Part shown: piece after piece, positions 1-56,019 of the stretch
Layout of the letters: every line of letters begins with the position of its first letter
Position numbering within the stretch: the first letter of the stretch is position 1
Virus record (IMG/VR): IMGVR_UViG_3300036402_000107
Coordinates: 1-56,019 of that record
Length of the DNA: 56,019 bases
Source: a virus
Taxonomy: Duplodnaviria > Caudoviricetes
Strand: one strand, 5' to 3'
Translations under genes and position numbers: made by a program
The notes under the pieces: model-generated
What the model saw: the letters and a program-made list of their open reading frames with translations, nothing else
The model's database searches: none
Told to the model about the DNA's origin: nothing

Positions 1-1
1 G

Positions 2-1177
2 CTGGCCCGTGCTGTCGTGTTCGGCCCGATCCTCTCCAGCGACCTCACCTTCGAGTCCGACGACGACACCCCTCCGCTCGTCGTCGACTTCATCCGATCG
101 CAATACGAGGGCGTCGCCCCCAGCCTGCGTGAGCAGCTCCTCCGCTCGCTCGACTTCGGTGCCCGCTCGCTCGAGCAGTCCTACACCCCCGTCAACTTCC
201 AAGGCCGTCCGCTCGTGGGCATCAAGCGGTTCAAGCCGCTCCGCCCCGAGAACACGCAGGTGCTCGTCGATCCGGACACCGGGGACTACGCGGGTCTCCG
301 CAACGGTGCCGTCGATCTCCTCCCCGAAGAGACGCTGCACTTCGCGTACGACATGGAGGACGACGACTACTACGGGCGTGCTCGCCTCGAGAACGTGCGG
401 GAACGGGCTTGGTGGCCGCACTACTGCCTCGAGAAGAGGCTCGGCCAGCTCGCACAGAAGGTGAGCCAGATCATCCCGATCGTCAAAGGCCCGCTCTCCT
501 CACGCGAGAAGGACACGGAAGGGAACGAGATCAGCGGCTACGACGCGGGCATGGCCCTGCTCAACGCCCTGATCACCGGCGACGGCGTGATGGTCGAGAA
601 CATGGCGTCTTCCATCGACGACGTGATCGGCAACCCGGAACTTGCCAAGATGGCGAAGTGGGACGTCGAGCCGTACGACACCGGGCAGAGTGCGACCGGG
701 ATCAGCGGGATCATCGAAGGTCTCCGCTACTACGACTCGCTCAAGCTGCGTGGCATGCTCCGCCCGGAACGCACCGCCACGGAGGGCCAGCACGGCACCA
801 AGGCGGAAGTCGCCGAGCAGGCGGACGTCGGTCTGGCGGAGGGCGACTCGCTGCACCGCCGGATGCTGCAGGTGATCAACTGGCACAGCGTCAACCGCCT
901 GCTCCTGTGGAACTTCGGCGAGCGGATGGTCGGCAAGGTGCGTCTCGTGGGCTCGCCGCTCATCGACGAGAAGAAAGCGATCTTCCGCTGGATCTGGACG
1001 ACGCTCCTCGCAAATCCGGCTGTCCTCGACCTCGTGGTCGCGAACCTCGACCTCGACGCGATCGCCGAGACTCTAGGCGTGCCGCTCATCGCCTCCGTGA
1101 ACGTGCCTGAGAACAGCCTCGTCACTCCGCCCGTCAACCCGGCACTGGCCGACAACGTGATCGCCGCCGCCGCATGA
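2..1177 (+). CDS. Portal protein (Mu gp29/DUF935-like), 5'-truncated; N-terminus is at the window end (55846-56019)
   Basis: Frame is open from position 2 (LARAVVFGPI...). On the circle it lies between TerL and the MuF-like gene. C-terminal 'TEGQHGTKAE' resembles DUF935 portals. Confidence 0.8.
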   Translation: MARAVVFGPILSSDLTFESDDDTPPLVVDFIRSQYEGVAPSLREQLLRSLDFGARSLEQSYTPVNFQGRPLVGIKRFKPLRPENTQVLVDPDTGDYAGLRNGAVDLLPEETLHFAYDMEDDDYYGRARLENVRERAWWPHYCLEKRLGQLAQKVSQIIPIVKGPLSSREKDTEGNEISGYDAGMALLNALITGDGVMVENMASSIDDVIGNPELAKMAKWDVEPYDTGQSATGISGIIEGLRYYDSLKLRGMLRPERTATEGQHGTKAEVAEQADVGLAEGDSLHRRMLQVINWHSVNRLLLWNFGERMVGKVRLVGSPLIDEKKAIFRWIWTTLLANPAVLDLVVANLDLDAIAETLGVPLIASVNVPENSLVTPPVNPALADNVIAAAA

Positions 1178-3471
1178 CCCAGCAGCTCCGCAAAGCCCTG
1201 CAGATGGAAAAGGATCGCCTCCGCTACGAGGCGATCGGGATGATCCATGCCCGTGCCGCCGCCGCCCGTGCCCGGGGTGCCGTGCTCCGTACGTGGCTCC
1301 GCACCGGCGACGCGGGGGCGGTGCAGACCGCACTGGCCGTCCACCTCTCCCCGCTGATCCCCCTCGTCACGGACGGGATGATCGCGGGGCATCTCGCGGG
1401 CGTCTCCCGGACTCAGGAGAGCGTCGTGGAGCGTGGGGAGGGTCGTCGGGGCATCCGGCTGTCCTCCGCGTACGAGAACGCCCTCCGCTTCCTAAGAGAG
1501 CGTACCGGGATGACGGCGGAGCAGCAGGAGAGCTTACGCCTACGCTACGACACGGCGGCGACGCAGGTGGTCGCCGGTGCCACCAAGCAGGCTCAGGACA
1601 AGGTGAGCCAAGCGATCCGCGAGAGCATCGAGGCTGGCGACGGCGTCAAGCGTGGTAGCACCAAGGTCGCCGCCGCAATGGAAGCGGCGGGGCTGGGAGC
1701 ACAGAAGAAGCACACCCTCGAACAGGTCTTCCGGACGCAGACGCAGCTGGCCTACTCCGCCGGGCGGATGAACAGCTTGAGCGACCCGGCGATTCAGGAG
1801 ATCCTGTGGGGCTTCGAGTACGTGACCGTTGGCGACTCCCGCGTACGCCCCGCCCACTGCGAGATGGACGGCCACAAGGCACCGAAGGAAGACCCGATCT
1901 GGTCGAGGTGGACTCCGCCCAACGGCTATAACTGCCGCTGTGCGATCCTCGAGATCTTCGACGGCGGGACGCCTTCAACCAAGACGCCGGACGTCCAGCC
2001 CGACAAGGGCTTCGCGTTCAACCCGGGCGACCTCACCGAGGGCGTGGTGGAGGCGTCGACACCGCAGCCCGTGCTGAAGCCGATGAACACGCACCCGTCC
2101 GCTCCTCCCCCGGGAGCGTCGGGCAGCCAGACGGCACCGGCGGAGTACGACGCCGAGTACGAGATGTGGGCGAACACGCTCACTAAGGACGAGTTCAGGG
2201 CTCTGCGGGAATGGGAAGCGAACCCTGCAGCGATGGCCGACATACGTCAAGTGAGTGCTGGCCTTCCTCCCCTCTACGAGTCGCAGCAGACGGCACGCGA
2301 GAACTACGACCTCTTCACGACTGCGGCCTCGAAGTGCCCGCCGTTCGAGGGCGTCACCTACCGTGGTCTGGCCGACCCGCCCAAAGAACTGATGGATCAG
2401 CTCACGAACGTCGGGGGCGAGGTCTCGATCGACAAGTACTCGTCGGCGACGAAGTCCCGCAACGCGGCGGAGTGGTACGCTTCCCGCGTTCGTGCCATGG
2501 AGCTTGGGGAGGACGTCCCGGCACGGGTCTCCGTCGTCATGAAGATGAAGACCAAGACCGGGATGGATCTCGCGGGCATCACCGGGCAGAAGGCGTCCGA
2601 GGAGGTCGTGCTCCGCCCCGGCGTCCGGTACCGGGTCGTCGGCAAGCCCGTCACCGTCACCAGCCGGATGAAGGATCTGGAGACCAAGGAGGAGAAGAGC
2701 GTCACCTACCAGCAGGTCGAGCTTGAGGAGGTGGATCCCGCCGCTCCCCCCGCACCCACCAAGAACACGCCGGTCATCGCCCCCGCCGCAGAGGAAGCTA
2801 AGCCGGGCGACAAGCCGAAACCTCAACCCGGTCGGTACACCGGAACGTTAACCTACTCTTCGGCGTCGTCCGAGCAGACCCTAACAGACGCACTTAGGGG
2901 TTCAGGGCTAAAGACCGATGACCCTCACGTCGCCATCGCCGCGATGGTGCCCGACGCAGCCCGCTTCCCCGTCTTGAAGGTGCACGCCACGAAGGACGGA
3001 ATCAACGTGAAGGCAGTCACCGGGGACGGGAGCAGGATCGACCGAACCATCCGCTCCATCGGTGGCAGGCCGGTCATGATTAACAACGAGTTCTACATTC
3101 CTAAGGAAGCACAGGGCAAGGGGTACGGCACGCAGTTCTTCTCCGATCAAGTCGAGAATGCACAGCGGGTCGGGATAGCGGAGATCAGAACTTCAGCAGC
3201 TAGAAGTGGCACAGAAAACGGTTACTACACGTGGCCCCGTCTCGGTTACGATGCGAAGCTCGAAGACTTCCGCGACTACCTCCAAGCACGACTACCTGCA
3301 GGCTTTTCATGGACCCAGAACATAAGCGATCTCATGGCGACGCCGGAAGGGCGAGCTTACTGGAAGAAGTGGGGAACCGACGCGTACCTCAAGTTCGACC
3401 TCGACCCCGATAGTCTGTCGCTAAAGGTGCTCAAAGCGTACAAGGCGGAGAAGGCGAAGCGGAATGGCTAA
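1174..3471 (+). CDS. MuF/SPP1 gp7-like minor head protein with ADP-ribosyltransferase and GNAT-like C-terminal domains
   Basis: MuF motifs 'FRTQTQLAYSAGR', 'YVTVGDSRVRPAH', 'PPNGYNCRC'. ART R-S-E motifs 'YRGL', 'YSSAT', 'SEEVVLRPG'. GNAT-like 'QGKGYGTQFF...GYYTWPRLGY'. Confidence 0.85.
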   Translation: MTQQLRKALQMEKDRLRYEAIGMIHARAAAARARGAVLRTWLRTGDAGAVQTALAVHLSPLIPLVTDGMIAGHLAGVSRTQESVVERGEGRRGIRLSSAYENALRFLRERTGMTAEQQESLRLRYDTAATQVVAGATKQAQDKVSQAIRESIEAGDGVKRGSTKVAAAMEAAGLGAQKKHTLEQVFRTQTQLAYSAGRMNSLSDPAIQEILWGFEYVTVGDSRVRPAHCEMDGHKAPKEDPIWSRWTPPNGYNCRCAILEIFDGGTPSTKTPDVQPDKGFAFNPGDLTEGVVEASTPQPVLKPMNTHPSAPPPGASGSQTAPAEYDAEYEMWANTLTKDEFRALREWEANPAAMADIRQVSAGLPPLYESQQTARENYDLFTTAASKCPPFEGVTYRGLADPPKELMDQLTNVGGEVSIDKYSSATKSRNAAEWYASRVRAMELGEDVPARVSVVMKMKTKTGMDLAGITGQKASEEVVLRPGVRYRVVGKPVTVTSRMKDLETKEEKSVTYQQVELEEVDPAAPPAPTKNTPVIAPAAEEAKPGDKPKPQPGRYTGTLTYSSASSEQTLTDALRGSGLKTDDPHVAIAAMVPDAARFPVLKVHATKDGINVKAVTGDGSRIDRTIRSIGGRPVMINNEFYIPKEAQGKGYGTQFFSDQVENAQRVGIAEIRTSAARSGTENGYYTWPRLGYDAKLEDFRDYLQARLPAGFSWTQNISDLMATPEGRAYWKKWGTDAYLKFDLDPDSLSLKVLKAYKAEKAKRNG

Positions 3472-19009: not shown

Positions 19010-19435
19010 GTGCAGACGATCAAGACACTCCAAGGACAGTTTTTCCTCCTCAGCAACTTCGCCCCGACTCCCGTCAGCTTCGAGGGCGTCCTCTTCCCGA
19101 CCGTTGAACACGCCTTCCAAGCCCAGAAGACGCACGACAACGCCGAGCGTCGGCGGATCGCGAGCCTCCCCAAGCCCGGTCAGGCGAAGCACGCCGGGAA
19201 GCGAGTCAAGCTCCGGGAGGATTGGGAGCAGGTCAAGGTCGGGATCATGAAGGCGATTCTCGTCGCCAAGTTCGAGCAGAACGCAGCAGCACGGGACGTC
19301 CTTTATCGAACCGGCGACGCCCGGATCGAGGAGGGCAACCTTTGGAACGACACCTTTTGGGGCGTCAGCCTTAAGACCGGGAAGGGCAAGAACACCCTCG
19401 GGCTCCTCCTCGAAGAGATCCGCAACACGCTTTGA
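19010..19435 (+). CDS. NADAR (YbiA-like) family protein
   Basis: 'LSNF', 'FPTVEHAFQAQK', 'LREDWEQVK..IM..ILVAKF.QN', 'EGN.W.DTFWG', 'GKN.LG.LL..IR'. Confidence 0.9.
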   Translation: MQTIKTLQGQFFLLSNFAPTPVSFEGVLFPTVEHAFQAQKTHDNAERRRIASLPKPGQAKHAGKRVKLREDWEQVKVGIMKAILVAKFEQNAAARDVLYRTGDARIEEGNLWNDTFWGVSLKTGKGKNTLGLLLEEIRNTL

Positions 19436-20180: not shown

Positions 20181-20208
20181 ACCGAACAACAACTTAACGA
20201 AGATCAAG

Positions 20209-20245
20209 AGACCCCTCCCCGTGACCCGGGCGAGGGGTCTTGCGT
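20209..20245 (+). terminator. Hairpin/terminator before P3
   Basis: AGACCCCTC / GAGGGGTCT stem. Confidence 0.45.
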
Positions 20246-20301: not shown

Positions 20302-20364
20302 CCTCTTTCGGTTGCGGATTCGCAACCGGCCGATCCGGCGGTGAGTCCGGACTGAAAGGACTAG

Positions 20365-20833: not shown

Positions 20834-20852
20834 CCTGACGGAGAATGACGAG

Positions 20853-21251
20853 ATGACCATCACCCAGATCAAGCGGAAGCACAACCCCCATCAACCCGTG
20901 GGCCGCTGGATTCGCCCCGCGAAGCGGATGGCGATCTACCTCAGGGATCGCTTCCAGTGCCTTTACTGTGGTGCCGACCTCCACGGCGTCACCGACCCCC
21001 GCCACATCCAGCTCGACCACAAGACCCCGGTGAGCAAGGGAGGCTCGAACCTCGAGCACAACGTCTTCACGACCTGCATGCGTTGCAACTGCTCGCGGGG
21101 ATCGAAGCCCTTCCGGTCGTTCGCGACCACGGGGGCGAAGCAGCGGGCCAAGCGTCAGCTCTCGCTCTCGCTCAAGCCGTACCTCGCCCTCGCCAAGGCC
21201 ATCTGCTCGGGGGCGGTCAGCAGGGAGCAGGCTCTCAGCGAGATCCGCTAG
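20853..21251 (+). CDS. HNH endonuclease
   Basis: 'RDRFQCLYCG...LDHKTPVSKGGSN...NVFTTCMRCNCSRG'. Confidence 0.85.
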   Translation: MTITQIKRKHNPHQPVGRWIRPAKRMAIYLRDRFQCLYCGADLHGVTDPRHIQLDHKTPVSKGGSNLEHNVFTTCMRCNCSRGSKPFRSFATTGAKQRAKRQLSLSLKPYLALAKAICSGAVSREQALSEIR

Positions 21252-27488: not shown

Positions 27489-27972
27489 CTACGTCGCGTT
27501 GATCCGTCTAGCCCGCGACGGGCACCGCGGGGCGTGGGAGGCGATGGTGGCCCGGCTCACCCCGATGCTGCGGTCTTTGGCCCGTCGCCTTGGCCCGGTC
27601 GGGCACGAGGAGGACGCCGTGCAGGAAGCCCTGCTACGCGTCGTGCAGCAGATCGGGCGGGTCGATCTCGGCCGCGAGTCCACGGCCCGCACCTTCATCA
27701 TGAACGCGGGCGTGTTCGCGATCCGCACCTTCAACACCAAGATCATGAGGGAGAACCGACGCGACAAGCTGAAGACACACCGCACCGGCGTCGTCCAAGA
27801 CCCCGACCTCGCCGACTTCCCGCCCGTCCTGTCGCTATACTTCCGCTACATCATGGAGCACGGCACGATTCTCGGTGCCCACAAGAGCGTCGGCGACGAG
27901 TTGGGGATTCACAAGGCGTCCGCGTTCCGCCGCTTCCATCAAGAGGCGAAGACTTTCATGGAGGGACTGTGA
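27472..27972 (+). CDS. ECF-like RNA polymerase sigma factor
   Basis: 'LIRLARDGHRGAWEAMV', 'EDAVQEALL', 'TFIMN...', C-terminal 'ELGIHKASAFRR' HTH. Start uncertain. Confidence 0.7.
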   Translation: MSPQSSYVALIRLARDGHRGAWEAMVARLTPMLRSLARRLGPVGHEEDAVQEALLRVVQQIGRVDLGRESTARTFIMNAGVFAIRTFNTKIMRENRRDKLKTHRTGVVQDPDLADFPPVLSLYFRYIMEHGTILGAHKSVGDELGIHKASAFRRFHQEAKTFMEGL

Positions 27973-30311
27973 GAAGAGTAATCGTCGTCGGCGACATGCC
28001 GCAACCAGACCAGCAGCTGCAAGCCATCATGAAGGAGGTCTCCCCCGACTGTCTGTACTGGCACGTCAACGAGGTGGAGAAGTTCAAGCCGGTGACGGGC
28101 GACCTCATGGTGCCGCTCGGCAAGGCCGCGATCGAGACCGTGCTCCGCGTCGACAAGGCCAAGGTAGATGATCTCGTCGGGCAGCAGTACGACGCCAAGG
28201 TCGAGGGGGCGGACGTCAAGGTCATCTGCCAGTACCACCCCGGTTACCTCGCGAGGATGCAGGAGAAGAAGGGCGGAGCGACCGAGCGGGCGGTCAAAGC
28301 GTGGTTCGACGTGTGGGACACCGTGCAGGAGGTCTCCACGGGCGAGGAGGTCAAGATCCCTGAGGTGCTCGTCCTCACCGAGTACGAAGACGTCGTGGCG
28401 TGGCTGGAGTACCTGCGTGACACCGACCACGTGATCGGCTACGACTACGAGACTTGGGGCGTGAACCAGAGCGGGGAGAACACCGCACTCCGGCCGGAAC
28501 TGTGCACCGAGTTCGAGATCCTCACCATCGGCTGTGCCGTCGTCAGGGAAGACGGCACGTGGGACGCCTTCAGCTTCCCCTTCGACTGGCACAGGGAGGA
28601 CGGCACGTGGTACTGGACGGAGGAGCAGCAGCAGGTGATCGCCGACCTGTGGTTCGGGATCTACCTCGGCAAGAGGTCGATCGCTCACTTCTGCAAGTAC
28701 GAGCACAAGTGCAACCTCAAGCGGTTCGGCAGGACGAACGTCTCGCTCATGGACACGATGCTGGAGGACGACACCTACAACGAAGTGAACGACCACAAGC
28801 TTCACCGCGTCGGTGCCCGAATGGGTCTGCGGTGGATGCGGTACAAGAGCCTGAGCGACAAGACCCGCAAGAACCCGAAAGAAGCACCGCTGGACAAACT
28901 GCTGGAGTACAACGCCCTCGACGCCCTCTGCACGATCCTCTCGCACGTCAAGCTCGACGAACTCCTCAGCGAGCAGCAGCTCGACGGCGTGGCCCGGATG
29001 GAAGAGAGCTTCTGCTACTACCTCGCCAAGCTCGAGATGAACGGCATGCAGGTGGACGCGAACGAAGCGTCGATCGTCCGTGCCGAGCTTCGCGACGTCG
29101 AGATCCCCAAGCTGCAGCACGAGTTCAGCACCCTGCCCGAGATCCAGAAGGTGGAGCGGTGGGCACTCCGCACCATGAAGAAGTACCAGACCAAGGCGTA
29201 TCAGGAGGGACGCAAGCAGGTCGTCTTCTCCCCGAAGTCGCCGCCCATGATGAAGTACCTGTGCATGGACGTGCTGAAGCTGCCGATTCAGGAAGTCAAA
29301 GTCAACGGCAAGTACACTCTGAAGTTCGACAAGCGGACGCTCGAGCCATACGAGGAGGACGTCCCCGTCCTGACGCACCTCGTCAACCTTCGCCGCACGT
29401 CGGCGATGCTGACGGGCTTCCTCGACAAGTGGGAAGCCTTCGTCGACTCGCACGGCAAGGTGCACAGCCAGTACAACCAAGGCAAGGTCGTCACCGGCCG
29501 TCTCTCTTCGACCGACCCGCCCCAGCAGAACATACCCAAGAAGCACCGGGTGCGGAAGGTCTACGTCAGCCGGTACAAGGACGGCTGGCTCGTTAACGTC
29601 GACGTCAAGCAGCAAGAACCCCGCTTGCTCGCCGGATGGTCGAAGGACGAGAAGATGATCGAGGCGATCAACGGTGGGTACGACCTCCACGGCTTCGTGG
29701 CCAGCGAGATCTACGGCGTGCCCTACCTCGCCGACCAGACCGAGCACCGCGAGATCGGGAAGCGGATGAATCTCGGCATGATGTACGGGCAGACCGAGTA
29801 CGGGCTCGCCGCCAAGACCGGGATGACCGTCGAGGCAGCGGTGCGTCTCCTGAAGCTGTACGATCGCCGCTTCCCCCGGATCGCCAAGCAGCGTCAGGAG
29901 TGGCAGGCTTTCGCCGCCAAGCACGGCTACGCCGAAGACCTGTTTGGCCGTCGCCGCCACCTCCCCGACGCCCTCTCGAAGGACAAGTGGCTGCGGGAGC
30001 GGGCACTCCGCCAAGCCTGCAACTACCCGATCCAGCGTACCGCCCTCGTCTTCACGATGGTCTCGATGGGCGTGGCGATGCAGACCATCGAAGACGAGGG
30101 GCTCGAAGACGCGATGTGCGTCTGCGGCACCGTGCACGACTCGATCATCGGGGACGCCGCCGACGCCAAGTACCGCAAACGGCTGCAAGAGATCTTGGTG
30201 TACGGCGTGGAGATCCATAACAAGGCCGAGTACTGGAAGGACAGCGGCGTGCCCATGAAGGCGGACGTCGAGTGGGGGCGGAACCTCTACCAGCTGGAGA
30301 AGGCCGCATGA
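27969..30311 (+). CDS. polA: Family A DNA polymerase with 3'-5' exonuclease and N-terminal UDG-like domain
   Basis: ExoI 'DYET', ExoIII 'YNALD', 'TGRLSSTDPPQQNIP', motif A 'DVKQQEPR', motif B 'REIGKRMNLGMMYG', motif C 'VHDS'. N-terminal 'LGKAA...YHPGYLAR'. Confidence 0.92.
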   Translation: MRRVIVVGDMPQPDQQLQAIMKEVSPDCLYWHVNEVEKFKPVTGDLMVPLGKAAIETVLRVDKAKVDDLVGQQYDAKVEGADVKVICQYHPGYLARMQEKKGGATERAVKAWFDVWDTVQEVSTGEEVKIPEVLVLTEYEDVVAWLEYLRDTDHVIGYDYETWGVNQSGENTALRPELCTEFEILTIGCAVVREDGTWDAFSFPFDWHREDGTWYWTEEQQQVIADLWFGIYLGKRSIAHFCKYEHKCNLKRFGRTNVSLMDTMLEDDTYNEVNDHKLHRVGARMGLRWMRYKSLSDKTRKNPKEAPLDKLLEYNALDALCTILSHVKLDELLSEQQLDGVARMEESFCYYLAKLEMNGMQVDANEASIVRAELRDVEIPKLQHEFSTLPEIQKVERWALRTMKKYQTKAYQEGRKQVVFSPKSPPMMKYLCMDVLKLPIQEVKVNGKYTLKFDKRTLEPYEEDVPVLTHLVNLRRTSAMLTGFLDKWEAFVDSHGKVHSQYNQGKVVTGRLSSTDPPQQNIPKKHRVRKVYVSRYKDGWLVNVDVKQQEPRLLAGWSKDEKMIEAINGGYDLHGFVASEIYGVPYLADQTEHREIGKRMNLGMMYGQTEYGLAAKTGMTVEAAVRLLKLYDRRFPRIAKQRQEWQAFAAKHGYAEDLFGRRRHLPDALSKDKWLRERALRQACNYPIQRTALVFTMVSMGVAMQTIEDEGLEDAMCVCGTVHDSIIGDAADAKYRKRLQEILVYGVEIHNKAEYWKDSGVPMKADVEWGRNLYQLEKAA

Positions 30312-33389: not shown

Positions 33390-33487
33390 ACGAGATCGTG
33401 TAACGACAGTACCCACCTGAGGGTTATAGAGACGGGCGGAGGTACAGCGGTGAGTTGCCGTTGCCTCCGCCCCTTTTGTTCGGGAGG

Positions 33488-34585
33488 ATGACCTTGATCA
33501 AGCGGAACAAAGCTAACGTGATTATCGACGGCCAGTGGGGCAGCACCGGGAAGGGTCTGCTCGCTGGCTACCTTTACGACCGGTACCCCAGCATCCTCGC
33601 TGGCGTCTGCGACTTCATGCCGAACGCGGGTCACACCGTGCACCTTCCCAACGGCACGGTCTTCGTCTCGCGGCACGTGCCGATCGCTGCGGCCTACGGG
33701 CGGATGGCCTTCATCGGCCCCCACGCCGCGATCGACATGAACACGCTGAAGAACGAGATGCGGCATCTGCGGGACTGCCGCTCCGAACCGGGCGAGGTGT
33801 ACGTGCACCCGCTCGCCTCCGTGATCTCCCCGGACGACCTGACGGCCGAGCGGATCATCTTGGGGCGGATCGCCAGCACGCAGAAGGGTGGTCACGCCTC
33901 GACGGCCCGCAAGACGATGAGGACGAAGGACGCGTCGATCGCCGGTGACTACAAGACGGCCCTCCGCGAGATCGGCGTGAACGTCGCCGACACGCACGAA
34001 TGCGTGCAGCGGACGCTGGCCCACGGCGGGACGGTGTTGATCGAGACGGCACAGGGCTTCGATCTCGGGTTGAACCACGGCAAGGAGTGGCCCTACGTCA
34101 CGGGCCGCGACTGCCTCGTGGGTCGGGCACTCGACAACGCGGGCGTCCCGATCCGCGACTGCGGCAGCGTCATCGGCTGCATGCGTACCTTCCCCATCCG
34201 CGTCGGCAACACCGACAACGGGAACAGTGGCCCGCACTACGAAGACCAGCGGGAGCTGACGTGGGAGCAGGTCTCCGAGATCGCGGGCGAGAAGATCGAG
34301 GAGCGGACGACCGTCACCAACCGCGTCCGTCGCGTCTTCACCTTCAGCGATACGCAGGCTCGTCGCTTCTTTACGTTCGTCCGCCCCGACTACCTGTTCC
34401 TCAACTTCTGGAACCAGACCAACGCCGAGCCTCAGGGCGAGCGGAGCAAGCGTCTCTGGCACATCAAGGCACTGGCGGCTCACCACGGCTGCCAGCTCCG
34501 CCTGATCGGCACCGGCCCGAAGTCCGGCGACGTGATCGACCTCGAAGACCCGACCGCCTCACAGATTGGAGTGCTGCACCTTTGA
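33488..34585 (+). CDS. purZ: PurZ, N6-succino-2-amino-2'-deoxyadenylate synthase (PurA paralog)
   Basis: 'DGQWGSTGKG' (Ser at the PurA catalytic Asp of GDEGKG), 'PNAGHT', 'IETAQGFDL', 'RTFPIRVG', 'TTVTNRVRRVF', and 'NFWNQ' replacing the PurA 'TKLD' GTP motif. Confidence 0.88.
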   Translation: MTLIKRNKANVIIDGQWGSTGKGLLAGYLYDRYPSILAGVCDFMPNAGHTVHLPNGTVFVSRHVPIAAAYGRMAFIGPHAAIDMNTLKNEMRHLRDCRSEPGEVYVHPLASVISPDDLTAERIILGRIASTQKGGHASTARKTMRTKDASIAGDYKTALREIGVNVADTHECVQRTLAHGGTVLIETAQGFDLGLNHGKEWPYVTGRDCLVGRALDNAGVPIRDCGSVIGCMRTFPIRVGNTDNGNSGPHYEDQRELTWEQVSEIAGEKIEERTTVTNRVRRVFTFSDTQARRFFTFVRPDYLFLNFWNQTNAEPQGERSKRLWHIKALAAHHGCQLRLIGTGPKSGDVIDLEDPTASQIGVLHL

Positions 34586-35124
34586 CACTCGTCTCCTACA
34601 TCGGTTCCGTGGGTTCGGGCAAGACGACCCGCGTGAAGGACTACCCCAAGAAGGAAGGGCGTGGGGACGGCTGCATCCTCTTCATGCCCGGTCAGATCCT
34701 CCGGGCTGCGATCGGCCCGGGGTTCTTTGCGACGGAGGACGGAAACGCACCGCGTGTCTGCGATGAGTTCGTGTTCGGGCAGTGGCTGCAGCACTTCGAG
34801 TTTGCCCGGAAGACGGGGGCGGTGACGGTCGTCTCGGACGGCTGGCCGCGAACCGCCCTGCAGGCTGCAGCCCTCGTGCAGTGGCTCCACCGGAGCGGGA
34901 ACCGCATCACCGTCTACCCGCACCACCTGATCTGCTCGGAGGACGAGTGGGAGCGTCGTCTCAAGGGAGACCGTTGGCTGCAGAACCCCGAGCTGGAGGC
35001 GATCGACCGCCGACGTTACGCACAGAGCATCGAGGACTCGCTCGGCTCGATCTCTGTGCTCCGCTCCACCGGCGAACCCTTCGTCAAGGCCGTACAGATT
35101 CACATGGAGAACGCACCCCAATGA
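34582..35124 (+). CDS. Nucleoside monophosphate kinase (adenylate kinase-like)
   Basis: P-loop 'GSVGSGKTT', 'DGWPRT..QA'; TTG start overlaps the purZ stop. Confidence 0.75.
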   Translation: MTLVSYIGSVGSGKTTRVKDYPKKEGRGDGCILFMPGQILRAAIGPGFFATEDGNAPRVCDEFVFGQWLQHFEFARKTGAVTVVSDGWPRTALQAAALVQWLHRSGNRITVYPHHLICSEDEWERRLKGDRWLQNPELEAIDRRRYAQSIEDSLGSISVLRSTGEPFVKAVQIHMENAPQ

Positions 35125-35774
35125 AGACCGTTCAAGAGATCATCTCAACGCTCGCGAGATCCGTGCAGACCATGAACGGTCGGCACGGCTCGTCTCACGC
35201 CGTGACCGCTCAACTCGAGTTTGAAGAGAGCATGCTGGAACTCTTCAGGGCTAGGAACGGTGACGCCGAGTTTCGCGAGCCGATGCAGGTCATGTACCGC
35301 GACGATCTGGTGCGGACGCTGGCACCGCTGAAGCACGCCAAGCCGGGCGATTGCGGCTTCGACCTCGCCTACGCCCCCGAGAACTCGAGCGGGTCGGGGT
35401 CTTCCGCCGCGATGCTCCCCATCCGCATCCTGCCCGGCACTTTCAAGCTCATCCCCACCGGCGTCTACGTCAAGATCCCCGATGGCTACTTCGGCCTGCT
35501 CTGCGGTCGCTCCTCGACTTTCGGGAAGCGTGGCCTCTTCGTGGTCGAGTCCCGCATCGACAGCGGGTACACCGGCGAGCTGTTCGTGAAGCTCTGGCAC
35601 CCCGCTGTCTCCGGGGGCGACTTCGAGCAGCCGGTCGTCCCCGCCGTCATCGAGCCTTGGCAACGCGTGGCTCAGCTTGTGTTGATCCCCTTCAACTCGC
35701 CCCTTCTGGAGATCGTCGATGCCCTCCCCGCAACGCAACGAGGAAACACGGGTTTCGGCTCAAGCGGAGTTTGA
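35121..35774 (+). CDS. dut: Trimeric dUTPase-fold pyrophosphatase with N-terminal extension
   Basis: Motifs 'GFDL', 'GRSS', 'IDSGYTGE', 'RVAQLV', 'RGNTGFGSSG'. Confidence 0.85.
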   Translation: MKTVQEIISTLARSVQTMNGRHGSSHAVTAQLEFEESMLELFRARNGDAEFREPMQVMYRDDLVRTLAPLKHAKPGDCGFDLAYAPENSSGSGSSAAMLPIRILPGTFKLIPTGVYVKIPDGYFGLLCGRSSTFGKRGLFVVESRIDSGYTGELFVKLWHPAVSGGDFEQPVVPAVIEPWQRVAQLVLIPFNSPLLEIVDALPATQRGNTGFGSSGV

Positions 35775-36999
35775 GCTTGACCCGGAGTTCGAGTCCGCCG
35801 TCATCAGGGCGATGCTGCTCTCGCCGGGCTTCGTGTCGTCCTACCGCTCGCTGCTGACGGAGGATCTCTTCACCCGCCCGCACAACAAGTACCTGTGCAC
35901 CGTCCTGCTCCGCTTCTTCGACGAGTACCGCGAGTCCCCGAGCGTCGACGTGCTGGTCGACCTCATCCGGTGCGGCGAGTACCGGGCTCGCGGCTCGCTG
36001 GTCGAGGAGGTCAAAGAGCTGCAGCCCGTCGAGAACCTGCAGTACGTCGCCGACCGGGTCACCCAGTGGGCGAGGTGGCAGAAGATCACTTACGTGCTCG
36101 ACAACGACACGAGGGACGACCCCCGCCGCTTCGGCATCCTGATCGAGGAGGCGTCGCGGACGGGCGAGCACCTCAAGGGCGGCGAGATCGTCATGGGCTC
36201 GGGGCTGCCCGACGAGCACATCGAGTACGAGCGTACCAAGATTCTCACGCCGTGGGCCAGCCTGAACGAGCGTCTACGCGGTGGCCCCGAGTACGGTCAT
36301 CTCTGCATCATCGAGAGCTTCATCAACGTCGGCAAGACCGCCCTCCTCGTGAACGTCGGGGCAGCGGCACTCGCTCAGGGCGAGATCGTCTGCTACGGCG
36401 TCTTCGAGGACGGTGAACTCGAGATCCGCCGCCGCTTCCACCAGCACATCTCGGGGATGACGCAGGAGGAGATGATCAGCTGGCCCGAAGAGAGCCGACG
36501 CCGCGTGCAGGATTGGCTGAGCATGCACAACGGGAAGCTGTACATCAAGCGTCTCCGCTCGCGTCGTTCCTCAGTGGAGGACTTCGCGGGCTGGGTTCGC
36601 TCGGTGACGGAGCGTGAGGGCCGCGAATGCAGGCTGGCGATCTCCGACTACGCCGACCGCTTCGCGGCACCGAGGCGACGCAGCGAGGACAGGCAGGAGT
36701 ACCGCGAGATCTACGAAGAGTGCAAGCTCATGGCTCAGGATCTCGACCTCGTGCACTGGACTGCCCTACAGGCGAACCGCTCGAGCCACAATCAAGACGT
36801 CGTCGGTCTGGAGTTCACGGGCGAGAGCATCGGCAAGGCCGAGGGTGCCGACCTCGTGCTCGGTGCCGGGCAGACGGCGGAGGACGTCGAACTAGGGATC
36901 ATCAACCTGTTCTCCGCCAAGGTGCGGGGAGCGAGGAAACACGAACAGTGGAGGCTCAATGCCGACTTCGAAAGGCAACGAATCACCGAGATTGACTGA
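35719..36999 (+). CDS. DnaB-like replicative helicase
   Basis: 'TPWASLN..L.GG', Walker A 'NVGKT', 'SDYAD', 'WTALQANR', 'GESIGK...AD'. Start uncertain. Confidence 0.85.
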   Translation: MPSPQRNEETRVSAQAEFELDPEFESAVIRAMLLSPGFVSSYRSLLTEDLFTRPHNKYLCTVLLRFFDEYRESPSVDVLVDLIRCGEYRARGSLVEEVKELQPVENLQYVADRVTQWARWQKITYVLDNDTRDDPRRFGILIEEASRTGEHLKGGEIVMGSGLPDEHIEYERTKILTPWASLNERLRGGPEYGHLCIIESFINVGKTALLVNVGAAALAQGEIVCYGVFEDGELEIRRRFHQHISGMTQEEMISWPEESRRRVQDWLSMHNGKLYIKRLRSRRSSVEDFAGWVRSVTEREGRECRLAISDYADRFAAPRRRSEDRQEYREIYEECKLMAQDLDLVHWTALQANRSSHNQDVVGLEFTGESIGKAEGADLVLGAGQTAEDVELGIINLFSAKVRGARKHEQWRLNADFERQRITEID

Positions 37000-37198
37000 C
37001 AGCCAGAGGACGCTCCTGCAGCTGGCCCACGTCTCCTCGATCCTGCTCAGGTATGACGAACCGCGACTTAGGACTGCCTTTAGTGCGTACGAGGGGCTGG
37101 AACAGGACGGGTACGTCAGTCTCGTCCACGTTTCCCCCGGTAAACTGCACGTCCGTCTCACCCCCAAAGGTAAGGAAGCCATCAGCTATGCATGCTAG
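36992..37198 (+). CDS. Small winged-helix-like protein
   Basis: 'LEQDGYV...VRLTPKGKE'. Confidence 0.4.
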   Translation: MTDSQRTLLQLAHVSSILLRYDEPRLRTAFSAYEGLEQDGYVSLVHVSPGKLHVRLTPKGKEAISYAC

Positions 37199-37664
37199 CA
37201 ACACCACCATGAAGTCGTTACCGCTCGAGATCCTGCACCAGATCGCCCGGACTCCCCGGGACGGCAGCAACCTGCCGATGGCCCGCAAGCTCCTGCTCTG
37301 GATGAGGTTGCAGCACGAGAGGGCGGTCAAGCTCCCGCCCGCGTGGTACGCCAAGGCGGGCACCGCCAAGGCTTGGTGGGTCGTCGCCGACCTCCCCAAC
37401 CCGAGCGGCAAGAGCGAGAGCAACGTCGTGCAGGTCGCCTTCGTCGTCGTCGGCTTCGAGTACGGGAGGGCGATGAGCACGTGCCCGGTGACGCCCGTGG
37501 TGCACTTCGCCTGCTTCTGGGACGGACTGCCCCAGACGGTGCGGGGTTGGGGCGTGAAGGAGTACGGCGAGCAGATCGTTGAGACCGAGAAGTACGAAGC
37601 GGAGGAGCAGGTCACCTACGACGCCCCCGACAACGGCAGACCCGACAAACCCAAAAGGAAGTGA
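37189..37664 (+). CDS. Hypothetical protein
   Basis: AAGGA upstream of ATG; typical codon usage. Confidence 0.5.
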
Positions 37665-37667
37665 CCC

Positions 37668-38060
37668 ATGGCCAAGGGACGCGGAATGATCGACCTATCG
37701 TGCCGCTCGTGCGGACGCCGCTACGGCTTCACGTGGATCGAGGGAGAGCCGATCCCGCCCTGCCCGCACTGCAGGGCGATGCCGAACGAGAAGACGCAGC
37801 GGGACATGGCCCACGTCTTCGCAGTGGAGGCACTTTTGGAAAAGAACGCTCACGGCATGACCCCGTGCGAGCTGCAGAGGGCGAGGATCGCCGCCGGTCT
37901 CTCGATCGGCCAAGCCGCCAAGATCCTTGGAATCACCGTCGACGATCTGGAGAGGATCGAGGGCGGGACGCGTAAGCTCGACGTCGCCCTCGCCGTCGCC
38001 ATCGACAACGCGTATTGGCTGGCGAAACAGACGAGCGATCCCACGGGTCATGAGAGGTAG
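37668..38060 (+). CDS. Zn-ribbon plus XRE-HTH transcriptional regulator
   Basis: CxxC...CxxC then 'LQRARIAAGLSIGQAAKILGITVDDLERIEGG'. Confidence 0.75.
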   Translation: MAKGRGMIDLSCRSCGRRYGFTWIEGEPIPPCPHCRAMPNEKTQRDMAHVFAVEALLEKNAHGMTPCELQRARIAAGLSIGQAAKILGITVDDLERIEGGTRKLDVALAVAIDNAYWLAKQTSDPTGHER

Positions 38061-38072
38061 GAGGATCTGCCC

Positions 38073-38387
38073 ATGCCCATCGGTTCGATTTTCAGCGTTA
38101 CGTTCTTCGGTCTGGAGCGGAAGGACGGCAGCGACGAGGGGGAAGTCCCCTGCGTCCTCGTCTCCGTCCGCAGTTCTTCGGAGATGATCGCTACCGACGT
38201 CCGTACCGACGAGACCTTCACGGTCTCCGTCCCCCCGGGCGAGCGGTTCGACGCCCTCGTGCTAGTGACTTGGATCTTGCGGCACCTCAAGCGTCCGCAA
38301 TACGAACTGAACGAAGTGAGCATGCCGATCGTCGGGCTGCTGCACGTCGTCAGCGGCGGGGCTGTCCCCGTGAAGGAGGTAGACTGA
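38073..38387 (+). CDS. Hypothetical protein
   Basis: AGGAGG SD. Confidence 0.55.
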   Translation: MPIGSIFSVTFFGLERKDGSDEGEVPCVLVSVRSSSEMIATDVRTDETFTVSVPPGERFDALVLVTWILRHLKRPQYELNEVSMPIVGLLHVVSGGAVPVKEVD

Positions 38388-38641
38388 TGGGACGCCCGAT
38401 CACCGAGGACGAGCGGCTGTTCATCGTGCGAGTCCTGAAGGACGCGACGCAGAACGTCATGCTTCTGAGCGACTTCGAGCGATCGTTCGTGTTCGAGGTC
38501 GCGACGTCCTACGCTCGCTTCGGCTCGAAGCTGCAGACCAGCAATGCTCGAATGAGGACGCTCTACAACGTCGCCGTCAAGCTCTGCACCGACTTGACTG
38601 GCGTTCCCGAGATCGACTGGGAAGAGATGGCGGAGGAATAA
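38387..38641 (+). CDS. Hypothetical protein
   Basis: AAGGAGG SD; TGATG overlap. Confidence 0.55.
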   Translation: MGRPITEDERLFIVRVLKDATQNVMLLSDFERSFVFEVATSYARFGSKLQTSNARMRTLYNVAVKLCTDLTGVPEIDWEEMAEE

Positions 38642-39234
38642 TGAACTGTTCAGAGTGCAACGGCAACAACGCTTGTACGTGCAAGGCCACGAACCTCAGG
38701 CAGAAACGGCGGAAGCTGCGAATGATCGACCGTCTCGGAGGGAGGTGCCACACGTGCGGGTGCTCCGACCCGGCTAAGCTCACGTTCGACCACATCCACG
38801 GCGGAGGCAACGTGCATCGACGCGAGTCCGGGCGGGTGACGACCCACGCCCTCGCGGCTCAGGAGAAGGACCCCAGCAAGAAGTTCCGCCTTCTCTGTCG
38901 AACCTGCCACGCGTTCGAGGACATGCCTCGCATCCTCCACGGCGTCTCGCAGGGCGGAGACTCTGCGTTCATCAAGCAGCTGCGGAGTCTGAAGAACAAC
39001 CCGCTCCTGTGGGCCATCTTCAGCAGCGACCTGCGGGAGATGGTGCGTCTCCTCTTCCTCTGTCTTCCTGAGAACGTCCAAAAGGATGCTGGCGTGTCGG
39101 AGGAGAACGACTACTACCACACCGAGATGCAGATTGACGACTTCGACTTCGTCTCGGAGACGCTGGGTGAAGCCTACCCGGCGTTCAAGTTCATCTTCCG
39201 CGTGGCCGGTTTGGAGGAGGAGATTCAGGCGTGA
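38641..39234 (+). CDS. HNH-like nuclease domain protein
   Basis: 'LGGRCHTCG...LTFDHIHGGG...FRLLCRTCH'. Confidence 0.7.
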   Translation: MNCSECNGNNACTCKATNLRQKRRKLRMIDRLGGRCHTCGCSDPAKLTFDHIHGGGNVHRRESGRVTTHALAAQEKDPSKKFRLLCRTCHAFEDMPRILHGVSQGGDSAFIKQLRSLKNNPLLWAIFSSDLREMVRLLFLCLPENVQKDAGVSEENDYYHTEMQIDDFDFVSETLGEAYPAFKFIFRVAGLEEEIQA

Positions 39235-40211
39235 GCACTCGAGAGCTTAACAAGACGATCCTCGAGTACGTGAGGAGGGCGGTGGAGCTTGGGGACTACG
39301 AAGTCTCCGGCTTCCGCCTTCTCATGCGGTGCCCGCTCCCCGAGTGCCAAGAGGCCCGCAAACAGGAGCACTTCTACGTTAACCGCGAGTGGTATGGCTG
39401 GAAGTGCTACCGGCAGGGGGTGCAGGGCTCGCTGCGGGATCTCGTGCTGGCGAACCCCCTGCTCTGGGCACCGGTGCGGTCGCTGGACGACCGGGGGCAG
39501 GCTCGGCTCTCCGCCGACGTCCACCGGCTGCCCGACGACCTCGTCCCCCTCACCGAGGTCTCCGACCGCATCTTCGCCTCCCACCGGCGACGGGCTTATG
39601 AATACGCACTGCGGCGGGGCATCTCCCCGGCACAGATCCACGACTACAAGCTCGCCGTCAAGCAGGCCGACCCCCGCCTGTGGTTCCCCTTCTGGACGCC
39701 CGAGGGCGAGACGGTCTTCCGCATGGGCAGGCTCATCGAGACGCCGGGCGACCCGCCCGTCGAGGCGATCAAGACGTGGGACGAGGGCGTGCCCGACAAG
39801 CCGCTGTACGGCTCGCACGTCCGGAAGCCCACGGGGTTCCTCGCCCTCGTCGAGGGCGTCGTCGATCACTTCGTGACGCCGCACAGCTGCAGCCTGATGG
39901 GGAGCACGATCACGACCTCGCAGGCGGACACCGTCGAGCAGTGGTGCCGCGACGGGCTGGTCGACCGCGTCTTCGGGCTGTTCGACCCCGACGCCAAGGA
40001 CAAGGCCCGGCGTGAGATCCTGAAGCTGAGGAGGAGGGGCGTGAACGCGGCGGCGTGCTTCCTCGAGCGGACGGACAGCGACCCGGGGAAGCTTGGGGCG
40101 GGGGTGATGGGGCGGGTCAGCCGTGCTCTCGGGGCTGTGGCTTGCTCGACTCTTGCATCAAGACCGTTTCTAACACTTCACGTGCCTCCGCCAGCGTTCG
40201 CGACACCGTAG
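39231..40211 (+). CDS. DNA primase (Zn finger plus TOPRIM)
   Basis: 'CPLPEC...H...WKCYR', 'LVEGVVD', 'FDPDA', 'DPG'. Confidence 0.8.
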   Translation: MSTRELNKTILEYVRRAVELGDYEVSGFRLLMRCPLPECQEARKQEHFYVNREWYGWKCYRQGVQGSLRDLVLANPLLWAPVRSLDDRGQARLSADVHRLPDDLVPLTEVSDRIFASHRRRAYEYALRRGISPAQIHDYKLAVKQADPRLWFPFWTPEGETVFRMGRLIETPGDPPVEAIKTWDEGVPDKPLYGSHVRKPTGFLALVEGVVDHFVTPHSCSLMGSTITTSQADTVEQWCRDGLVDRVFGLFDPDAKDKARREILKLRRRGVNAAACFLERTDSDPGKLGAGVMGRVSRALGAVACSTLASRPFLTLHVPPPAFATP

Positions 40212-41275: not shown

Positions 41276-41752
41276 ATGGCAGCAGCGACCATGGAAGCGA
41301 AGAAGCCCAACCCCTACGAAGCCCCGAAGATCGACTGGCACGCGGCCGAGCGGTTCTTCCTCTTCGACCCGTCCCTCCCGTCGATCAAGGACGTCGCCGT
41401 CAAGTACGGCGTCAGCTACCTGACGGCCCACAAGCACGCGACCCGTGGCCGGTGGGTGAAGCGGCGGAGCACGGAGCACAAGAGGCTGCACGAGAGGGCG
41501 TTGGAGGAGTGCCGCAAGCTGTACGTCGAGGATCGCGTCCTCCGTCTGCGTAGGCTGACGAGGCTGATCGACGCGGCACTCGACGACGCGGTGACCGAAC
41601 CGGGCGAGGCGGTGCCCCACATCCTCAAGCTCATACGGGTCGAGCAGGAGATCATCGAGGGGCTGCCGTCCGATCGGGCACGCGACCGAGTACTACGTGA
41701 ACACGTCGATCGAGCACTGACGCTCGGCGGCTTACACAGGAGAGAAGAATGA
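41276..41752 (+). CDS. HTH protein resembling terminase small subunit N-termini
   Basis: 'IDW......F.....SIKDVAVKYGVSY.T....A.RGRW..RR'. Confidence 0.55.
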   Translation: MAAATMEAKKPNPYEAPKIDWHAAERFFLFDPSLPSIKDVAVKYGVSYLTAHKHATRGRWVKRRSTEHKRLHERALEECRKLYVEDRVLRLRRLTRLIDAALDDAVTEPGEAVPHILKLIRVEQEIIEGLPSDRARDRVLREHVDRALTLGGLHRREE

Positions 41753-42489
41753 GCGACGAGACAGGGAACGCGGGGAAGCAGAACCCCAAGCACCGGGCCA
41801 AGTACCGCGTCTTCGTGAGCGGACGGTACGCGAGCAGGAAGCGGGCGTCGGACTTCACGCAGGCCATGTGCCAGCAGAACGACCAGACCGTCTGCCCGCT
41901 GTACTGGTTCCTGCACGACCGGGACGACGACCAGCTCACACCGGCCGAGAAGCTGGGGCTGTCCACGACGATCCTCCGGGCGATCCGGGAGTGCGACTAC
42001 TTCGTGCACCTCCACGAGAACGTGCCGCAGCGGGGCGGGAACCTCGTGGAGCTGGGGATGGCCCTCGCACTCGGCAAGACCGTAATCGCCGTCCTCCCGC
42101 ACGTCGACGCCCTCGTCGCCCCGCCGACCCCGACAAAGGACGTCCCGAACCAGAAGATCCCGCCCGTCACCCGTCAGATGGTCCCCATGGGCGGCGTCTT
42201 CCACGAGCTTCCCCAGTGCTACGTGGTGAGGACGGACGACGAAGCCCTCGCCACGCTCCACCGCTGGATCGTCCGGAAGGCCAACCCCTCCCCCGAGTCC
42301 CGTGGGGTGCAGCTCGTGCCCTCCCATGTGGCCGACGTCGGGGAGGAAGGTCAGGTGGTCTACGGCGGCCTAGGGCTCGTCCCCAAGCCCGCGTCGATGA
42401 ACACGCCCGTTCTCGGCCCGGTCGCCGTGGAGTACCGGGCGGACGCGGCGGAGCAGAAGTCGCCCAAGAGTCGTAAACGCAACACGTAG
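41749..42489 (+). CDS. Nucleoside 2-deoxyribosyltransferase/nucleotide N-glycosidase-like protein
   Basis: 'VFVSGRY', 'AIRECDYFV', 'GGNLVELGMALALGKTVI'. Confidence 0.7.
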   Translation: MSDETGNAGKQNPKHRAKYRVFVSGRYASRKRASDFTQAMCQQNDQTVCPLYWFLHDRDDDQLTPAEKLGLSTTILRAIRECDYFVHLHENVPQRGGNLVELGMALALGKTVIAVLPHVDALVAPPTPTKDVPNQKIPPVTRQMVPMGGVFHELPQCYVVRTDDEALATLHRWIVRKANPSPESRGVQLVPSHVADVGEEGQVVYGGLGLVPKPASMNTPVLGPVAVEYRADAAEQKSPKSRKRNT

Positions 42490-43584: not shown

Positions 43585-43968
43585 GAAGGTGGCCCAAACC
43601 GACAGGACACGGAGGCAGCATGGCACTCTGGAGCGAGACACGACGTGAGTGGTACGAAGAGGATCGCAGGCTCTTTGTCCCGGTGCACCACGGGTCGGAC
43701 GGTCTCAGCTCGTCGATTGTCGACCCCTGCAAGCCCTGCAGCCCCATCGAGCGAGGGGAGGCGAGAGGGATCGAGATCCACCCCGCTCTCGTCGAGGATC
43801 TCCTGCGGCGGGCTTGTCCCCACGCGGGCAACCCTGAACACGCATTCTACTGCCGCTTCTGCGGCGAAAGGCTCTACCGTGGTGCTCTCCCCCCGAACCG
43901 TCAACCACCAGAACGTACCCACCCGCCGACTCCCCGTCCCGCACCTCACCGAGGATCTGCAGGTCTCC

Positions 43969-44388
43969 TTGCCCGGCTACGTCTGGCCGCAAGTACGCTT
44001 CTCGGCCGACCCGGGCGGTAAGGTCTTCGAGTACGAGGCCAAGGTCGAGCGGGTCGTCGACGGCGACACCCTGTGGGCTCTCCTCAAAGAGTCCCGCGAC
44101 TTCGGCTTCGATCAGGTCGTCACCGTCGAGAAGCGTATCGACCTCCGCCTGTTCGGGCTGGACGCCAAGCACAAAGACACGCTGGAAGGGAAGGACGCCA
44201 TGCAGATGCTCATCGACGAGACGCTCCGCCCGGGTCTCCGAGTCCAGACCATCAAGGACAAGAGGGAGAAGTTCGGCCGGTTCCTCGCCGTGCTCTGGGT
44301 GGGGGACGAGGTGAAGAGCGTAAACCAGCGGATGATCGAGGCGGGCTTGGCTCTGCCGTGGAATGGTAAAGGACCGCACCCGGTATGA
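43969..44388 (+). CDS. Thermonuclease (SNase-like)
   Basis: 'RVVDGDTL', 'LRLFGLDA', 'KFGRFLA', 'VNQRMIEAGLA'. Start uncertain. Confidence 0.8.
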   Translation: MPGYVWPQVRFSADPGGKVFEYEAKVERVVDGDTLWALLKESRDFGFDQVVTVEKRIDLRLFGLDAKHKDTLEGKDAMQMLIDETLRPGLRVQTIKDKREKFGRFLAVLWVGDEVKSVNQRMIEAGLALPWNGKGPHPV

Positions 44389-55843: not shown

Positions 55844-55845
55844 CG

Positions 55846-56019
55846 ATGGCAGAAGCAGCAACGCCCCCTCCCATGGGCAGCAAGACCGGCCCGCAGTCGG
55901 GCAGGAACGGCAACAGGCTCGGTGCCCTAGGGGTTCCGATCGCCTACTTCGGCGGAGACACGGCGGCGACGCCCGGGAAGCGGACGCGTAAGCTCCTCTA
56001 CGGCCAATCGTTCGGCAAC
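55846..56019 (+). CDS. N-terminus of the portal protein (runs off the window)
   Basis: AGGAG SD, ATG 55846, open to the end of the window. Confidence 0.65.
   Translation, partial: MAEAATPPPMGSKTGPQSGRNGNRLGALGVPIAYFGGDTAATPGKRTRKLLYGQSFGN

Follow-up and report, generated by a model that had tools for sequence, protein, structure and literature searches.

The window analyzed here is the whole 56,019-base stretch of the IMG/VR virus record IMGVR_UViG_3300036402_000107, and the subject of this analysis is the tetranucleotide GCGC, which is missing from it, together with other short palindromes that are missing or rare. The record is a virus contig of linear class with a GC content of 64.4% and no N, and its completeness is estimated by CheckV at 80%. 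The sequence represents nearly all of the genome of an uncultured siphophage from soil, which carries a 2-aminoadenine (Z) module of the PurZ type. In total, 61 open reading frames (ORFs) were called by a GC3-based heuristic, nearly all of them on the + strand. A siphophage layout was found by family searches, including a Mu-like portal, a MuF-like protein, the major capsid, major tail, and tape measure proteins, and tail proteins. The replication block contains a family A DNA polymerase, an SSB-like protein, a DnaB-like helicase, and a primase. The genes for the small and large terminase subunits are located at the far end and would adjoin the portal gene if the map were circular. No integrase family was found among the ORFs scanned with Pfam and PHROG, many of which match no family, and no tRNA was found in the window.

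Not a single GCGC was found in all 56,019 bases, and as the word is a palindrome this count covers both strands. The initial annotation of this DNA, made by reading the letters alone, had claimed that GCGC is absent and that hundreds of copies would be expected at this GC content; both claims were confirmed. The expected number is 603 by base composition, 576 by a first-order Markov model, 346 by a second-order Markov model, and 327.3 ± 14.1 by synonymous codon shuffling (300 shuffles in the 61 ORFs; minimum 285; z = -23), i.e., 327–603 by the four nulls. The words CGCG (310 copies), GGCC (310), and CCGG (485) are plentiful in the whole record, as had also been noted. The word counts against Markov and codon-shuffled nulls that the annotation proposed as a check gave an observed-to-expected ratio (O/E) of zero for GCGC and revealed other missing palindromes as well.

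The codon detours around GCGC that had been seen by eye were found to be strictly dependent on context, with zeros for GCG, CGC, GGC, AGC, and TGC wherever these would complete the word. Thus, Ala is encoded by GCG in 0 of 329 cases before a codon starting with C, but in 201 of 421 cases when A follows and in 97 of 202 when T follows. Arg is encoded by CGC in 0 of 401 cases after a codon ending with G and in 259 of 580 cases after C. Before a GCN codon, GGC is used for Gly in 0 of 87 cases, AGC for Ser in 0 of 67, and TGC for Cys in 0 of 11; elsewhere these are preferred codons (753 of 1296, 322 of 924, and 187 of 209, respectively). The replacement codons are diverse, Ala being encoded by GCC or GCT, Arg by CGG or AGG, and Gly by GGG or GGA.

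All three codon phases are empty, with expected numbers of 99, 101, and 126, and so is the DNA outside ORFs (5,485 bases), for which about 54 copies are expected from composition. Codon-pair bias alone, one of the two outcomes that would have undone the annotated claim, is therefore insufficient. The window contains 5,545 words that differ from GCGC by one substitution, and 1,019 synonymous and 473 intergenic single changes would create the site. All these changes are open and none is present, so that selection must be ongoing and the zero is actively maintained. The transition neighbors of GCGC are in excess (GTGC/GCAC, 723 vs. 564; ACGC/GCGT, 816 vs. 685), as would be expected if sites were destroyed by single mutations, and TCGC/GCGA, a neighbor at the outer position, is likewise enriched. 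The absence of GCGC is thus the work of selection on the sequence, as supported by replacements that are synonymous, diverse, and context-specific and by the purging of non-coding DNA.

Further words were compared with a null made of synonymous swaps that create no GCGC (200 shuffles). The observed and expected numbers under this null were as follows.

CCWGG: 0 observed, 208 expected
GGWCC: 8 observed, 195 expected
CCGCGG: 0 observed, 48 expected
GAGCTC: 0 observed, 34 expected
AGGCCT: 0 observed, 13 expected
GCCGGC: 2 observed, 49 expected
GGGCCC: 1 observed, 27 expected
CGGCCG: 18 observed, 64 expected
GGATCC: 2 observed, 12 expected
GGCC: 281 observed, 517 expected

In the whole record, CCWGG, GAGCTC, and AGGCCT have no copies, CCGCGG and GGGCCC have 1 each, GCCGGC and GGATCC have 2 each, and GGWCC has 9. 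Six of the 6-mers have z between -4 and -8. The deficit of GGCC persists after conditioning on eight purged words (281 vs. 477) and is seen in all flanking contexts. Leftover sites are scattered along the genome and form no clusters. All strongly purged words are palindromes of 4–6 bp, i.e., Type II-like, and in every case they contain 0–2 A:T pairs. Enzymes with these words as sites are HhaI, EcoRII, AvaII, SacII, SacI, StuI, NaeI, and ApaI. CGCG was rejected as an independently avoided word, its deficit being largely a side effect of the GCGC ban (O/E of 0.64, rising to 0.82 with the GCGC-free null). Some non-palindromic words are also low after conditioning: GGAGCC/GGCTCC (14 vs. 58), AACATC/GATGTT (0 vs. 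10.7), and five-letter stretches of C or of G (137 vs. 238). Enriched words include GATC (485 vs. 377), CTGCAG (51 vs. 26), and GCACCG/CGGTGC (141 vs. 87).

The genes that make up or may belong to the Z module, and the polymerase, are located as follows.

33455..34585, + strand: PurZ-like succino-amino-deoxyadenylate synthase (PHROG 1211, 3.9e-57; best NCBIfam model NF038379, 210 bits)
34782..35774, + strand, just downstream of PurZ: Dut-like protein, DutZ candidate (dATP/dGTP hydrolase; Pfam dUTPase, 1.7e-13)
41749..42489, + strand: nucleoside deoxyribosyltransferase-like protein, weak DmtZ candidate (PF05014, E 1.5e-5, 25.5 bits, cut-off 28.8)
27534..30311, + strand: DNA polymerase of family A, 925 aa (236 bits with the Pol I model)

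The PurZ-like ORF is drawn from the first TTG, and its true start may be an ATG about 11 codons further in. Its score of 210 bits with NF038379 lies below the 300-bit cut-off of that model, and PurA models give at most 127 bits. The P-loop reads GSTGKG, in which Ser replaces Asp13, the catalytic residue of PurA. According to the available part of PMC12884076, the Asp-to-Ser change occurs in all 147 phage PurZ sequences analyzed there. Eight other PurZ phages were used for comparison: S-2L, Arthrobacter phage Sergei, Microbacterium phage Milani, Gordonia phage Archimedes, Ochrobactrum phage OH, Micrococcus phage Olihed, Streptomyces phage Galactica, and Curtobacterium phage Parvaparticeps. In tblastn searches, the PurZ-like protein has a match in all 8 of them and in 0 of 8 non-Z phages.

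In the Dut-like protein, the dUTPase domain (about residues 196–329) follows an N-terminal extension with no recognized fold. By tblastn, this protein has matches to Dut genes in 6 of the 8 PurZ phages (2e-24 to 1e-11) but in none of the 8 non-Z phages, although annotated dUTPases occur in two of the latter. Dut-like enzymes of this type (DutZ) are described as hydrolyzing dATP and dGTP, and a role is given for the nucleoside deoxyribosyltransferase family (DmtZ), in the available part of PMC12884076. Judged from these genes, A is likely to be replaced by Z in the DNA of the window.

It is likely that the purged words reflect multi-site restriction avoidance, with host restriction-modification systems as its agents. 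We infer that these include one host system specific for GCGC (the HhaI/HinP1I specificity). A genome gaining a site would be lost on hosts with the matching enzyme, and site-free injected DNA would escape cutting. As a synonymous codon is available for every GCGC, the proteins remain unchanged. Complete or near-complete elimination of sites has been reported for about one-tenth of viral genomes, with overwhelmingly orthodox Type II sites and non-temperate dsDNA phages involved, according to the available part of Rusinov et al. (2018; PMC6286503). Searches for C5 and N4/N6 methyltransferases gave no match, either in six frames of the window with PF00145 and PF01555 or in the ORFs with Pfam and PHROG.

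Z would probably act as a second, partial protective layer, powerless at sites with no A/T and weak at sites with one or two A:T pairs. The low A:T content of all strongly purged sites fits such a partial shield. Of 147 enzymes assayed on dZ DNA, 47% still cut to completion and 53% were inhibited in full or in part, so that Z can be only a partial shield, and sites with 4–6 dZ were the most resistant (Yang et al., 2026; PMC12944874, available part). Table S1 of that study, which also includes some of the enzymes named above, gives "R" for AvaII (GGWCC) and BamHI, "PR?" for BstNI (CCWGG), and "S" for PspGI (CCWGG), and in its available part no result for SacI or StuI. A simple match between in vitro dZ class and depletion in the window was tried and dropped as mixed: the PspGI-sensitive CCWGG is purged, the AvaII- and BamHI-resistant sites are purged too, and the sensitive sites TCGA, AGCT, and GCWGC are not depleted.

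Several observations weigh against this reading of restriction avoidance in a Z genome. No host could be derived from tRNAs, cultured relatives, or prophage relatives, and no cognate restriction-modification system was seen. At a completeness of 80%, a methyltransferase could sit in the missing part of the genome. GGWCC and GGATCC are purged though dZ blocks AvaII and BamHI in vitro; either the host enzymes are unlike the commercial ones, or the purge is older than Z, or A is replaced by Z only in part. The polymerase is outside both DpoZ groups (DpoZ_1, 77 bits with a cut-off of 500; DpoZ_2, 32 bits), and no match to DatZ or MazZ was found in the window by tblastn with the S-2L queries.

The polymerase is nearer to PolA of the non-Z Gordonia phage Emalyn (4e-27) than to any DpoZ (best in Ochrobactrum phage OH, 1e-15). 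S-2L is also without DpoZ, and its annotation shows PrimPol; DpoZ is therefore not obligatory for a Z genome. The PurZ of the window is closest to the Vibrio/Ochrobactrum/S-2L type (5e-37 to 2e-25) and less close to the actinophage PurZ0 type (2e-21 to 6e-11), and the Dut-like gene matches actinophage-type PurZ phages only. According to the available part of PMC12884076, dutZ is present in all 98 PurZ0 genomes, and DatZ and MazZ types are found in PurZ genomes. Set against this pattern, the Z module of the window is a mosaic of an Ochrobactrum/S-2L-type PurZ and an actinophage-type Dut without DatZ, MazZ, or DpoZ, a combination that may be a new arrangement. The long N-terminal region of the polymerase has a weak family 4 uracil-DNA glycosylase match at residues ~167–248 (TIGR00758, E 4.8e-4, far below the cut-off).

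Searches for the HinP1I endonuclease family (PF11463), which is only one of the families able to recognize GCGC, gave no match in 401 sampled genomes of one phylum, but 0 of 14 controls matched either, so that this result is uninformative; the same holds for two further genomes, in which nothing was found and the controls were silent too. A scan of genome contigs for a host gave one contig of a metagenome-assembled genome and one weak Streptomyces match, neither of them informative. In the protein atlas, the clusters matching the papain-like peptidase are mostly viral and one is partly actinobacterial.

Avoidance in the PurZ phages was compared with that in five non-Z lytic phages: Molivia, Lesiram, Emalyn, Stromboli, and GreenIvy. 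The non-Z phages were isolated on Arthrobacter, Microbacterium, and Gordonia strains, one strain per genus, that also yielded three of the eight PurZ phages; an isolation host should not be equated with the natural host range. For Molivia and Galactica, 50,000 bases of each were used. Left out of the non-Z pool were Cozz (from the genus of Emalyn), Armstrong (with the gene order of Stromboli), and MargaretKali (temperate), whose own counts are 0/15 and 3/42, 0/15 and 0/23, and 1/15 and 0/30, respectively. The words analyzed were palindromic 4- and 6-mers and six 5-mers for which the Markov model predicted 10 copies or more, and a word was considered purged at O/E below 0.3.

GCGC itself is not avoided by any of the eight other PurZ phages. 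S-2L has 315 copies vs. 269 expected, and O/E is 0.88–1.08 in the other seven. The eight phages taken together purge G/C-only words more often (30 of 114) than words that contain A/T (26 of 270; odds ratio 3.35, Fisher p = 5.6e-5), and the G/C-only fraction is the higher one in seven of them, S-2L being the exception. The five non-Z phages show the opposite trend, with 6 of 69 G/C-only words purged and 33 of 172 of those that contain A/T (odds ratio 0.40, p = 0.053). By the number of A/T positions, the purged words are distributed as follows.

8 other PurZ phages: 30 of 114 at 0 A/T, 26 of 226 at 1–2 A/T, 0 of 44 at 4–6 A/T
5 non-Z phages: 6 of 69 at 0 A/T, 26 of 139 at 1–2 A/T, 7 of 33 at 4–6 A/T
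Window: 4 of 12 at 0 A/T, 4 of 30 at 1–2 A/T, 1 of 6 at 4–6 A/T

The direction is the same in all 12 combinations of threshold and minimum expectation. By the difference in mean log O/E per genome, the nine PurZ genomes are separated from the five non-Z genomes with one overlap (exact Mann–Whitney p = 0.002, or 0.003 without the window), in a comparison of few genomes in which the words are mutually dependent and the actinophage PurZ group shares ancestry. Among the non-Z phages, GreenIvy carries glycosyltransferases, and its own DNA may be modified; Stromboli purges no word. The non-Z Microbacterium phage Lesiram (L067, PP978869.1) has 0 copies of AGCT vs. 81 expected and purges 16 other palindromes, with A/T present in 14 of the 17, a purge as extreme as that of the window but on the A/T side. 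Among the eight other PurZ phages, GCCGGC is purged in seven, S-2L being the exception, and GGCGCC in six (L060–L063, L072–L074); these two words are very widespread targets among high-GC hosts. Five of the six purged 6-mers of the window are also purged in Arthrobacter phage Sergei.

For the PurZ phages as a class, a two-layer defense may tentatively be proposed, at odds slightly short of even: Z would shield sites according to their A:T content and purging would cover the rest, with avoidance shifted to sites with 0–2 A:T pairs. The window is the most extreme PurZ case, as a whole 4-mer is lost. If this proposal is true, the sites that a Z phage has purged would point to the host enzymes against which Z is ineffective in nature. 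Should the trend persist when more genomes are compared with control for phylogeny, it would provide the first measure, taken from genomes and under natural conditions, of the protection afforded by 2-aminoadenine and would explain why purging continues in Z phages as opposed to hydroxymethylcytosine phages. No paper linking Z genomes with site avoidance was found in the searchable literature, which is without most subscription journals.

These results also bear on the explanation offered in the initial annotation, in which GCGC, as an A-free site that Z cannot protect, was removed by selection under a host nuclease. Selection is supported, a PurZ-type module is present, and Z cannot alter a site with no A/T. 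What did not stand is the special place of GCGC as the lone A-free exception: CCWGG (0 vs. 208), GGWCC (8 vs. 195), GAGCTC, AGGCCT, and GGATCC are equally purged. As stated, the Z logic thus fails on the purged A/T-containing sites; its graded form has preliminary comparative support. Nor is the purge a general property of Z genomes, with an O/E for GCGC of 0.88–1.17 in S-2L and the seven other PurZ phages, and it therefore reflects the hosts of the phage in the window.

No relative at the DNA or capsid level was found among cultured phages. Closer relatives are known as proteins only (P0002 and P0003, with 89 and 78% capsid identity). Relatives in the metagenome scan have at most 44% identity among the matches listed, and those in the viral scans with capsid, PurZ, or terminase at most 52%. 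In 56 loci of relatives by capsid or terminase (at most 52% identity), four pairs of which are the same contig from two collections, the Markov O/E for GCGC is at least 0.9 in 38, below 0.5 in 7, and zero in none. Relatives of like GC content have 19–22 GCGC per kb (L021, 398 in 21,080 bases; L016, 334 in 15,089 bases). Other palindromes are purged in many of these loci, including GGWCC (0/19) and GCCGGC (0/12) in L056, GCCGGC (0/22) in L057, and GATC (0/36) in L047. That purged sets differ by lineage would be expected from differing host enzymes, and the lineage-specific purges together with partial GCGC depletion show that such pressure exists in this phage group. Partial GCGC-specific depletion was seen in L008/L031, L044/L045, L028/L029, and L001 (24/91, 28/83, 43/128, 12/39, 47/103, 20/96), with CCWGG mostly normal.

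GCGC, CCWGG, GGWCC, and GGCC are classic targets of cytosine-5 methyltransferases. The phage could then be escaping methylation and not cutting, if C5 marks acquired in one host triggered Type IV nucleases in the next. Each of the purged words is a site of C5 methyltransferases, the genome is without a methyltransferase of its own, and the purge of GGWCC and GGATCC, at which Z blocks the enzymes assayed, would be easier to understand if cutting were not the sole pressure. However, the same data fit ordinary avoidance equally, and two types of host are needed in place of one. Avoidance is credited mainly to orthodox Type II systems in the available part of Rusinov et al. (2018; PMC6286503), and escape from methylation is improbable here. 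Even less probable is self-protection by site loss from a GCGC- or short-site nuclease of the phage itself that shreds host DNA. Three nucleases, each assigned to a family but to no specificity, are encoded in the window, in which many ORFs are without a family.

20853..21251, + strand: HNH endonuclease
26937-27488: PD-(D/E)XK/RusA-like nuclease
43645..44388, + strand: SNase-like nuclease

The loss of at least eight different words would require several such nucleases, and nucleases of these kinds are common in phages with ordinary GCGC content. No HinP1I-family match was found in six frames of the window, in a search in which one control matched, below the cut-off only. In addition, the relatives purge other, varying sets of words, as varying hosts would produce.

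Mutation without selection is very improbable. Methylated GCGC could have deaminated to GTGC/GCAC until none was left, and GTGC/GCAC is indeed the most enriched neighbor (1.28-fold). Decay alone, however, never gives 0 of ~330 with 5,545 one-step words left; the other replacements are wide (Ala GCC/GCT, Arg CGG/AGG, Gly GGG/GGA), and ACGC/GCGT and TCGC/GCGA are enriched too. Still less credence is given to loss or miscalling of GCGC during sequencing or assembly. The window sequence was found in only one public run, a soil metagenome, which is probably the source of the record. Independent Logan contigs of this run have 0 differing letters on the listed pieces, e.g., over 9,669 bases at 28568-38236; as the run is probably the source, this agreement excludes an error of assembly but not one at the level of reads. 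A miscall predicts one dominant replacement and changed amino acids, in contrast to the several synonymous codons and intact frames observed, and CCWGG, GGWCC, and several 6-mers are missing as well. Equally negligible is the removal of GCGC by codon-pair bias or general composition with no nuclease involved. Low counts are also seen for C or G runs and for words rich in A/T, but all three phases, both coding strands, and non-coding DNA are emptied, relatives of like GC content keep 19–22 GCGC per kb, and the missing words are palindromes. Host-driven restriction avoidance thus remains the preferred reading.

Classic examples of avoidance are the GATC-free Staphylococcus phage K and the GGCC-poor Bacillus phages. 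Restriction-site avoidance is already well known, and the window is an unusually clean, extreme form of it. As in the virulent dsDNA phages described in the available part of Rusinov et al. (2018; PMC6286503), short Type II-like palindromes are fully or almost lost, synonymous choices are used, and no matching methyltransferase is present. The window stands at the extreme end both in how many words are purged and in how far: a 4-mer and a 5-mer are wholly gone and seven others are lost nearly or in part, at 64% GC, where GCGC should rank among the commonest words.

With the Z-genome phages S-2L, phiVC8, and the actinophage PurZ0 group (PMC12884076; PMC12944874; available parts), the window shares the PurZ Ser, an adjoining Dut-like gene as in PurZ0, and Z as the probable anti-restriction base. 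It differs from them by the absence of DatZ and MazZ and by a polymerase outside the DpoZ groups, and 0 of the 8 other PurZ phages avoid GCGC. The hydroxymethylcytosine T-even phages have a modified base in the genome, as the window probably does. The modified T-even phages avoid 2.4% of host sites compared with 55.8% in unmodified relatives (Rusinov et al., 2018; PMC6286503, available part), whereas the window and seven of the eight other PurZ phages keep strong avoidance, shifted to G/C-rich sites. The window would thus be a probable Z-genome phage still under heavy restriction pressure. Its purged list (GCGC, CCWGG, GGWCC, CCGCGG, GAGCTC, AGGCCT, GCCGGC, and GGGCCC) can be used as a profile of specificities when the host is sought in the same soil sample.

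In the run that contains the window, the region 20001–40000 gave an exact match, 39 contigs that are 95–99% alike, and 34 contigs that are 90–95% alike; related strains therefore share the soil sample. Strand asymmetry is strong, with 11,307 A vs. 8,620 T on the strand bearing nearly all genes. A protein with a NADAR domain is encoded at 19010-19435 (PF08719, 3.1e-27). This family is tied to the removal of ADP-ribose from DNA, and the protein may be a counter-defense gene product.

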